Assembly: GCA_977020255.1 (NCBI GenBank)
Contig: CDROCS010000007.1
Location: 62,001-126,000 of the forward strand
Reading direction: 5' to 3'
DNA from: Obrimoposthia wandeli
Lineage: Eukaryota
DNA length: 64,000 nt
Numbering within the stretch: the first letter of the stretch is position 1; the number at the start of each line of letters is the position of its first letter. A program made the translations under genes and the position numbers. Below, one piece after another: positions 45,250-46,786 of this stretch. A model generated the notes under the pieces. It saw only the letters and a program-made list of their open reading frames with translations, was not told where the DNA came from and searched no databases.

Positions 45250-45539
45250 ATGTCTGAGGAATGCCCAATATGTTTGGAAGATATAACCGAACGAAGAACA
45301 AGACCCAATACTTACACCATGAGGAATGTTTATCAAAATGGATCCGAACTTATGGAGAATTCCTACATCCAACATACCCTCGTTGCCCTGTATGCAGAAG
45401 ACAATTCATAAAATTAATCATAATAGAACCCAACCAAGAGGATGTAGATGTACAGGTGATATTCTGTTGGAAGAATTTGAGAGAGTGTTGGTGTTTTTTC
45501 TGTACATCAGAACGACAAGATCCGACCACTTTTGTGTAA
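45250..45539 (+). pseudogene. RING-H2 protein 1, frameshifted
   Basis: MSEECPICLEDI, then in another frame HHEECLSKW...CPVCRRQF...WKNLRECWCFFC; paralog of 45600..45905. Confidence 0.75.
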
Positions 45540-45599
45540 ACATCACACAACCACCAGCCCTCAATCGAGCCCAAATTCAACATCACCCCTCTCACATCA

Positions 45600-45905
45600 A
45601 TGTCTGGAGAATGTTCCATCTGCTACGAGAACATCGTGGACCTCTATACCCAACCCAACAACTGCGAACACCAATTTCATGTACAATGCCTCGAGACATG
45701 GATCCCAATTGCCAACAGCAACAATCCCCTCGACTACCCAGCCTGCCCGATGTGCAGAGCATCCTTCTCGGTGCACTTCGTATACGACCGAGACAGTCTT
45801 CAATCAGTGGTACCCATCGTACACTACTGGAAGGACATCTGCGACTGCTGGTGCATGTTCTGCGTGGAGGAGAGACGCACAGGCCAGCCCAACAGCCAGC
45901 AGTAA
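45600..45905 (+). CDS. RING-H2 E3 ligase-like protein 2
   Basis: CSIC...CEHQFHVQC...W...CPMCR gives C3H2C3 spacing; intact 101-aa ORF. Confidence 0.9.
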   Translation: MSGECSICYENIVDLYTQPNNCEHQFHVQCLETWIPIANSNNPLDYPACPMCRASFSVHFVYDRDSLQSVVPIVHYWKDICDCWCMFCVEERRTGQPNSQQ

Positions 45906-46246
45906 TCAAAGGTAACTTTTTGACATAAACGTGACATCATGAACTAACCCTGTGTATCGCATACCGCGGTAAAATAAGCAACCATAATTGTATTCATAAT
46001 TGTATAATCTTATGAAACTGTAAAATGACATTTACCATTTTTATGTATGATGTTTATTTGAAATTGTAATTATTATACTGAAAATCCCAAAAGACAATTT
46101 TTATGCTTAGAATGCGAAAAAACATGCCCAAAGAAAAGACAAAAATTTGTAGGTTAAAATATTAAGGTTAAAATATTAAAGTTGAAATATTAAGGATTAA
46201 AATCACATAAACCTCAAATAAAAAAGTAATTAACCAACATACCATT

Positions 46247-46786
46247 GTGCAGATGATATGCTCGATATGCCTCGAACGAGTTCGGGACTCCTCGGCAATC
46301 CCTGCCGGATGCTGTCACAAATTCCACGAAGCGTGCCTCTATATGTGGGCCAAAGCTCAGGCCGCCGGCCACATCACATGTCCGATGTGCCGAGCTCCCT
46401 TTACCGAGTGGACAATCCAATGCCGTGGACGTCCAAAGGGCACCCGCTCACCCACCAGCTGCATTGGTGGCGAGCACTACCAGTGCCCCATTTGCCCTGT
46501 GCACCGTCGCGACGCGCAGCGCAACATACGAGAGGTGTGGCGGTCTAGCCGTGACCACCACTCGTGGCAGTACGCTCGGCGAATGTGGCTCCGCAACCAT
46601 GAGCTGCACAGTTCCGGCGCCCACCTATTCCGTCAAAGCCCGCATCAGAATATCTTCCAACAGCTGGGGCTCTACCAGGGTGACACTCCAGTCTTCCCAA
46701 CGTTGCCCTTGGAACGGGTTATGTTGTTCCTCGAGGAGCGGAACAGGCCAGTGCCCACCATCGACTTAACAATGGAAGACCGATGA
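46247..46786 (+). CDS. RING-H2 E3 ligase-like protein 3
   Basis: CSIC...CCHKFHEAC...W...CPMCR; intact ORF with an additional CPICPVH motif. Confidence 0.88.
   Translation: MQMICSICLERVRDSSAIPAGCCHKFHEACLYMWAKAQAAGHITCPMCRAPFTEWTIQCRGRPKGTRSPTSCIGGEHYQCPICPVHRRDAQRNIREVWRSSRDHHSWQYARRMWLRNHELHSSGAHLFRQSPHQNIFQQLGLYQGDTPVFPTLPLERVMLFLEERNRPVPTIDLTMEDR

Follow-up and report, generated by a model that had tools for sequence, protein, structure and literature searches.

Captured accessory genes are already known in retrotransposons with long terminal repeats (LTRs). In bdelloid rotifers, Ty3/gypsy-like elements carry genes other than gag and pol between pol and the 3′ LTR, with a captured ORF3 that encodes env, a GDSL esterase or a DEDDy exonuclease (PMC5408684). 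A GAG-ENV-POL order has been reported for nematode, bryozoan and flatworm errantiviruses (PMC13524379), and Ulp1-like SUMO proteases are carried by Crypton DNA transposons (PMC3212892). Accessory viral RING E3 ubiquitin ligases include ICP0 of alphaherpesviruses and PE38, CG30 and IE2 of baculoviruses; ICP0 acts as a SUMO-targeted ligase and degrades SUMO conjugates, in part through SUMO-interacting motifs (SIMs; PMC3174244). The combination of a RING and a SIM is the defining layout of SUMO-targeted ligases (PMC3901395), and piRNA silencing of transposons needs SUMO (10.1101/533091). The element described here, a degenerate Ty3/gypsy LTR retrotransposon of Obrimoposthia wandeli, resembles the bdelloid elements in having extra genes between pol and the 3′ LTR, and the last of these are three small RING genes, RING1, RING2 and RING3, which end 270 nt before the LTR. 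They lie in a 64,000-nt stretch (the window, to which all positions refer) of contig CDROCS010000007.1 of GenBank assembly GCA_977020255.1, positions 62,001–126,000 of the forward strand. By analogy with the systems above, we tentatively read them as a spliced accessory E3 ubiquitin-ligase cassette that would counter SUMO-dependent silencing, in a decayed copy of an invertebrate Ty3/gypsy (errantivirus-like) family; this is possible rather than probable. What appears to be new, judged from its sequence, is a candidate RING-plus-SIM gene in an LTR element, which has not been reported in the literature covered. The genes and the motif are as follows.

45250–45539, + strand: RING1, a broken paralogue of RING2 with six of the eight zinc ligands left; GC content at third codon positions (GC3) 0.33
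45600–45905, + strand: RING2, an intact RING-H2 protein of 101 residues with a post-RING β-hairpin (residues 58–74) and a C-terminal Cys motif; GC3 0.71
46253–46786, + strand: RING3, an intact RING-H2 protein of 177 residues with a Cys/His-rich linker, a helical region modelled with low confidence and a disordered tail; GC3 0.68
46748–46777, + strand: PIAS-type (SIM-b-like) SIM, RING3 residues 166–175, with core IDLT and then acidic residues

The likeness to SUMO-targeted ligases is carried by RING3. A SIM-like IDLT core and acidic residues stand within its last 12 residues, in a tail that is disordered in the model; SIMs lie in disordered regions, the type-b SIM of PIAS1 has the core VIDLT and those of RNF4 have VDLT (PMC3901395). 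Scored against the SIM peptide printed in PMC3526273, residues 166–175 reach 27, a value attained by two of 20,000 shuffles and by none of 150 database RING matches (the best 150 of 334), and the highest among 16 ORFs of the element (next best 23); a looser SIM pattern, set after RING3 had been seen, occurs in 228 of 200,000 shuffles. RING3 thus appears, in a post hoc test, to carry a SIM consensus in a disordered region, and it has one SIM-b only, no classic hydrophobic SIM core being found elsewhere in the protein. RNF4 and yeast Rad18 (which has one SIM) likewise combine a RING with a type-b SIM that has an IDLT or VDLT core and C-terminal acidic residues; the idea that yeast Uls1 has the same SIM found no confirmation in the literature covered. 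Slx5–Slx8 is a further SUMO-targeted ubiquitin ligase. RING3 differs from these ligases in having an N-terminal RING and a single C-terminal SIM, whereas RNF4 has four N-terminal SIMs, in showing no sequence homology to them outside the RING, and in being encoded by a retroelement. The Crypton protease is also a SUMO-pathway enzyme of a mobile element, but it is a protease in a DNA transposon, whereas RING3 would be a SIM-bearing ligase in an LTR retroelement.

The preliminary description had announced three small RING-H2 genes before the 3′ LTR, and all three are indeed on the + strand, RING2 and RING3 being intact and RING1 frameshifted. Against a Pfam zf-RING_2 cut-off of 27.3 bits, RING2 scores 36 bits and RING3 33.1 bits; both have all eight C3H2C3 ligands and adopt the RING fold in their models. 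In alignments with 45 database RINGs the zinc ligands and the Ile, Trp and Pro of the RING cores are conserved, as is an Arg in one of the two alignments; we take these four residues to be E2-binding positions. In RING1, compared with RING2, a frameshifting deletion near 45310–45320 removes the third Cys and the first His ligand, its pieces score 14.8 and 17.7 bits, and it lacks the eight ligands in one frame that characterize a RING-H2. Past about residue 60 the RING3 model cannot be relied on, and the viral fold matches of this protein are driven by the RING. No Pfam match was found for its linker or C-terminal part. The linker holds extra Cys and His residues (46421–46504, + strand; residues 57, 70, 75, 78, 81 and 84) that could form another zinc site.

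RING1 and RING2 are tandem paralogues, as had been proposed: they are colinear, have the same residue at 33 of 86 compared codons and share the motif WKxxxxCWCxFCxxER at the following positions.

45468–45515, + strand: WKxxxxCWCxFCxxER motif of RING1
45828–45875, + strand: WKxxxxCWCxFCxxER motif of RING2 (residues 77–92)

Over the 86 codons the proportion of differing sites is 0.80 at synonymous positions (pS; third positions are saturated) and 0.43 at nonsynonymous ones (pN), and the Cys codons of the motif differ synonymously between the two genes, which argues for purifying selection after they split. The motif itself is a selected feature, since nine of its 16 residues are identical in the two proteins compared with one of 20 in the preceding hairpin segment (Fisher p = 0.002). 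As only three Cys are common to the paralogues, the candidates for a fourth ligand differ and the RING2 model has a pLDDT of 55–62 in this region, the motif may be either a putative second zinc site, the option raised in the preliminary description, or a lipidation cluster. The RING2 tail has no Pfam match. RING1 and RING2 also contain hydrophobic SIM-like cores; these were discounted, since most of them lie in predicted strands and their scores are low.

The RING2 model, built from an alignment of four window pieces with 45 of the best 150 of 334 profile matches, has a mean pLDDT of 81, and its RING is extended by the confidently modelled β-hairpin. In a library of viral folds it gives 13 matches at E ≤ 0.001 (four alphaherpesvirus ICP0-type, four baculovirus, two iridovirus and three unnamed), the best being to the RINGs of ICP0, PE38 and iridoviruses. 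With equine herpesvirus EHV-1 ICP0, 81 columns align at an rmsd of 3.2, through the post-RING hairpin; nonviral RINGs align as far, Rad5 over 72 residues (Z 7.2, rmsd 2.9). The solved-structure searches barely tested the tail (residues 69–101). The ICP0 RING is of the C3HC4 type; RING2 has a His as its fifth ligand, its identity to the ICP0-type matches is 20–22%, and no orthology is evident, which places it outside the ICP0 family. The viral fold matches of the model establish a likeness in architecture but neither an origin in viruses nor membership of the ICP0 family. ICP0 moreover comprises several hundred residues, compared with 100–177 in the RING-H2 proteins here, where the SIM is on RING3 and the hairpin match on RING2. 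The analogy with viral E3 ligases drawn in the preliminary description is strengthened by the SIM-like tail of RING3 and the ICP0/PE38-like fold predicted for RING2.

The genes had been described as intronless and expressed separately. The intron-like spacer between RING2 and RING3, with its donor, branch and acceptor signals, contradicts the first point. In favour of the second are the acceptor-like sites found at two of the three start codons and the poly(A) signal that follows RING3.

45227–45248, + strand: branch-like site and acceptor-like TAG closing an AT-rich spacer of 80 nt, with one base between the TAG and the RING1 ATG
45912–46252, + strand: intron-like AT-rich spacer (341 nt, GC 0.26) with a donor-like site, a TTAAC resembling a branch site at 46230 and a CAG that abuts the RING3 ATG
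46899–46970, + strand: double AATAAA with a G/T-rich downstream element, upstream of the LTR and likely to be where the RING transcript is polyadenylated

The donor-like site lies 6 nt past the RING2 stop and agrees with the consensus at eight of nine positions, being one of only four among the 676 GT sites in the element to do so, and the spacer as a whole looks like a 341-nt intron. A YAG(A)ATG context is found at two of the three RING starts and at 18 of 356 ATGs in the element (p about 0.007), and RING1 and RING2 have a similar start context, each RING domain beginning with a Met of its own. The double AATAAA begins 113 nt past the RING3 stop and has the most G/T-rich downstream sequence of the nine AATAAA sites in 40000–47057 (G+T 0.72 and 0.68, compared with 0.32–0.52 for the other seven). 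These tests are simple consensus counts made after the sites had been seen; the signals suggest that a subgenomic RNA is spliced and has a 3′ end of its own, trans-splicing of a spliced leader being an alternative.

RING2 and RING3 are GC-richer than the rest of the element, as previously noted (GC 0.53 and 0.59, compared with about 0.34–0.38 for the element ORFs), and their GC3 values far exceed the 0.34 of the pooled element ORFs (p = 6e-14 and 2e-19, respectively), while that of RING1 is element-like. Of the AT-rich spacers that had been reported between the genes, the one between RING2 and RING3 is indeed AT-rich, whereas the one between RING1 and RING2 is C-rich (GC 0.50–0.52).

45540–45599, + strand: RING1–RING2 spacer, C-rich, GC 0.50, with a GC change point near 45551 (range 45429–45728)

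The shift in GC begins near 45551 and ends near 46766, which delimits a block of foreign composition from about 45550 to about 46800, so that RING2, the intron-like spacer and RING3 can be one acquired block. Their foreign GC3 supports the earlier view that RING2 and RING3 are later acquisitions. Since the neighbouring paralogue RING1 has an element-like composition, the RING family would already have been resident in the element. The simplest account of the origin is an old RING1 joined by a block that arrived later out of a related virus or mobile element, with a host gene cluster as a possible alternative; a host-like composition of RING2 and RING3 is weakly supported, the window containing one long GC3-rich non-element ORF (GC3 0.59).

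No ortholog or parent gene emerged from the search for host relatives that had been recommended at the outset, although host proteins may be missing from the sets searched. The RING1/RING2 profile gave 334 matches at E ≤ 0.001, and four patterns of the Cys motif found it in none of the best 150 of these. There was no candidate homologue of similar length for RING2; for RING3, none of 11 candidates of similar length and none of 68 longer proteins was significant. PHROGs returned no family for any of eight proteins and Rfam no match in 40000–52000, and with tblastn and blastn no additional copy of the cassette turned up in the window, nor was the IAP RING at 63115–63612 among the matches. In the topical literature, judged from titles and the beginnings of abstracts and with supplements, subscription journals and repeat databases outside its scope, no RING E3 in an LTR retrotransposon was found. 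The single mention of RING in the text of PMC8557442 is unrelated. The main text of PMC13524379 does not contain RING, ubiquitin, phosphatase or accessory as whole words, and its element tables could hold relatives.

From the anatomy of the cassette we infer splicing, SUMO binding, ligase activity, targets and a benefit to the element, which would be linked as follows. A subgenomic RNA would be spliced from the donor in the LTR leader to the acceptor at the start of RING1, or directly to that at the start of RING3, and would end at the poly(A) site of the cassette. The RING3 tail would bind SUMOylated proteins, and RING3 would recruit a host E2 and ubiquitylate them in the manner of RNF4 and ICP0; SUMO-dependent silencing complexes on the chromatin of the element (of the piRNA/Piwi, PIAS and SETDB1 type) would be the targets most likely to be hit. 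RING1 and RING2 may be minimal ligases made of a RING plus hairpin, with the Cys tail as a localization or substrate module. RING1 would be the older, compositionally adapted resident, and RING2, the intron and RING3 would have been added afterwards in a single block, for which a virus or another mobile element that had a related gene is the simplest source.

The element has the order gag with a zinc knuckle, protease, reverse transcriptase (RT), RNase H and integrase (Pfam), its closest solved relative being the Ty3-G Gag-Pol (E = 1e-26). Its body and its 3′ end comprise the following.

32726–45170, + strand: element body, with part of gag (including a zinc knuckle), remnants of protease, RT, RNase H and integrase, an ORF without match, two dual-specificity phosphatase genes and several membrane-protein ORFs
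47019–47056, + strand: short hairpin and T run just upstream of the LTR, the last bases C-rich
47057–51703, + strand: 3′ LTR (47057–48391 plus 51052–51703), TG...CA, with a TATA box at 47661, a site resembling a splice donor at 47918 and an array of 47-bp repeats
48392–51047, − strand: solo LTR of a sister family, inverted inside the 3′ LTR, with a 4-bp target duplication (CATT) and 72–79% identity to the host LTR where alignable

The window contains a 17.6-kb tandem duplication (about 4945–22624 and 22624–40311; 98.6% identity over 14.3 kb). The left part of the element is present in each unit, and only the second unit runs on to the 3′ end; no 5′ LTR was found within the window. The duplication (4945–40311) may be an assembly or haplotype artefact, and there is a further local repeat of 870 nt at 36486–38173. 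Both copies are decayed. An altered genetic code was rejected as the cause of the in-frame stops, since TAA, TGA and TAG are mixed and accompanied by frameshifts. Relative to its duplicate, the second copy has about 10–25 indels per kb over most of 36.5–41.2 kb, a density typical of a poorly polished assembly. In both copies the integrase core has apparently lost a part (21100–21200 and 39450–39620), which would make the element non-autonomous.

Several other genes accompany the RING cassette. A weak ubiquitin/SUMO-like domain stands between gag and protease (34315–34560, + strand, also in the first copy); four of its six structure matches are ISG15 or SUMO (E about 0.6), Pfam ubiquitin gives E = 0.042, and it would fit a ubiquitin/SUMO theme. 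Directly before the protease, a signal-peptide-like hydrophobic stretch (about 35800–35880, + strand, again in both copies) is possibly what is left of an env that was located between gag and pol, and presumably resembles the starts of gB-type env proteins. This stretch recalls the metazoan errantiviruses, from which the element differs in having no full env, no Pfam env match being found in it. An ORF of about 340 residues with three YFDG motifs follows the integrase (21608–22624, + strand; degraded at 40000–41250) and has no Pfam or PHROG match. Downstream of it are two dual-specificity phosphatase genes (41404–42518, + strand): the first, with best matches to DUSP10 and DUSP22, is frameshifted just after the catalytic motif, and the second shows no catalytic Cys motif. 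A run of ORFs with signal or transmembrane segments, together with a basic, β-rich ORF of 304 residues, occupies 42522–45170 (+ strand); several of their stop and start codons overlap, the ORFs past 42.1 kb are long and open, and one weak transmembrane match is the only family match. With two phosphatase genes and the weak ubiquitin-like domain in addition to the RINGs, the element would seem to collect signalling enzymes. The text of PMC5408684 on the bdelloid elements has no whole-word RING, ubiquitin or phosphatase, compared with three RINGs, two phosphatases and several membrane ORFs here.

A hairpin of the kind found just upstream of the LTR precedes gypsy 3′ LTRs; there is no clear polypurine tract directly before the 3′ LTR. 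The possibility that this LTR is an independent solo insertion was rejected, as the flanks differ. It and the related inverted LTR both have a donor-like site downstream of the TATA box and tandem arrays in their 3′ part (47945–48391 and 48820–50032) with different units of 47 and 57 bp. An 11-nt stretch before the LTR (about 46963–46973) is complementary to one in its 3′ part (about 51418–51428), and long-range pairing is possible. Further LTR ends of the same superfamily at 3150–3250, 5027–5179 and 22706–22858 imply many sister elements in this genome. Beyond the LTR, a broken type-B DNA polymerase (52760–53849) and an IAP-like gene with BIR and RING (61356–63612) suggest the remains of a Polinton or adintovirus-like element; RING genes could have such elements as a source, as an adintovirus RING 'oncoid' is among the weak fold matches of RING3.

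Several points weigh against a cassette that works on SUMO-dependent silencing. One copy of the cassette was available; the element around it has many lesions and lacks a 5′ LTR within the window, and RING1 is broken. At about eight lesions per 6.3 kb, 1.4 are expected in the cassette and one is seen, so that current selection on it is not shown; the chance of RING2 and RING3 both being intact without selection is about 0.35. The signal of selection between RING1 and RING2 may be older than their capture, and pS is inflated by the GC shift. Both the SIM and the splice signals had been spotted before they were tested; the GC change point at the RING2 edge (45970, range 45898–45984) does not pin the donor, and a poly(A) site before the LTR would shorten the genomic RNA unless suppressed. 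The solved-structure searches of RING2 returned generic RINGs only (best E 0.026; best Z 7.2), and the viral fold library consists of viral proteins only, so that its ranking cannot show viral origin. RING3 has one SIM compared with four in RNF4, which bind mono-SUMO very weakly (PMC3901395). The main rival, to our mind somewhat unlikely, is passive transduction, in which an unspliced piece of host or viral RNA (RING2, intron, RING3, 3′ untranslated region and poly(A) site) was gained by template switching and brought no benefit, the SIM and other motifs reflecting the function of the donor gene. The block does resemble a cellular transcription unit, with its intron-like spacer and its own poly(A) signal, its GC3 is closer to that of the long non-element ORF, and the intactness of RING2 and RING3 fits neutral decay. 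Yet the diverged, composition-adapted RING1 that adjoins it implies that the gene family entered twice or stayed long, the element contains several other accessory genes, and the search for a parent, with the reservation given above, was negative.

The genes could also be working accessory ligases with targets away from chromatin, such as cytoplasmic or membrane innate-immune factors or the Gag or Env of the element, the Cys tail being a lipid anchor and the SIM only localizing RING3. The three Cys in the tails of RING1 and RING2, flanked by aromatic and basic residues, fit what we take to be a lipidation cluster, Cys clusters also stand at the end of some small RINGs in the database (P0110, P0148, P0100 and P0119), and the neighbours encode MAPK-type phosphatases and membrane proteins; the RING-plus-SIM layout nevertheless points to SUMO, and the 6–9 residues that follow the motif leave no terminal prenylation box. 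We regard this reading as unlikely. A single multi-RING transcript or read-through product, in which the SIM of RING3 could serve all the RINGs, seems improbable: the 3′ part of RING1, the linker and RING2 are in one frame, into which splicing would bring RING3, tandem multi-RING proteins are among the top database matches (P0001–P0004) and in-frame stops occur elsewhere in the element, but each RING starts with its own Met, the start context is common to RING1 and RING2, and two such coincidences of frame are expected by chance one time in nine. We give very little credence to an assembly artefact, with the GC-rich block as a chimeric join or the RING1 break as a sequencing error. The dense indels of the second copy would invite it, and the duplicate, which ends at 22624, leaves the cassette uncovered; on the other hand, the ORFs past 42.1 kb remain open, RING2 is a true paralogue of the adjacent RING1, unlike a random chimera, and a proper LTR ends the element.

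The accessory-cassette reading can be taken further, to a version that we regard as doubtful: this LTR family would encode its own SUMO-targeted ligase, a miniature analogue of ICP0 made from a spliced subgenomic RNA, which would degrade SUMO-dependent piRNA and heterochromatin silencers, within a retrovirus-style suite of accessory genes (E3 ligases, MAPK-type phosphatases, a ubiquitin-like domain and membrane proteins) exchanged among sister families. To our knowledge, it is largely an open question whether the LTR elements of animals encode proteins dedicated to anti-silencing, and a gene of 177 codons with a separable RING and SIM makes the hypothesis directly testable. If it is true, a retrotransposon RING-plus-SIM ligase would represent counter-defence on the side of the transposon, matching the defeat of SUMO-dependent restriction by ICP0.

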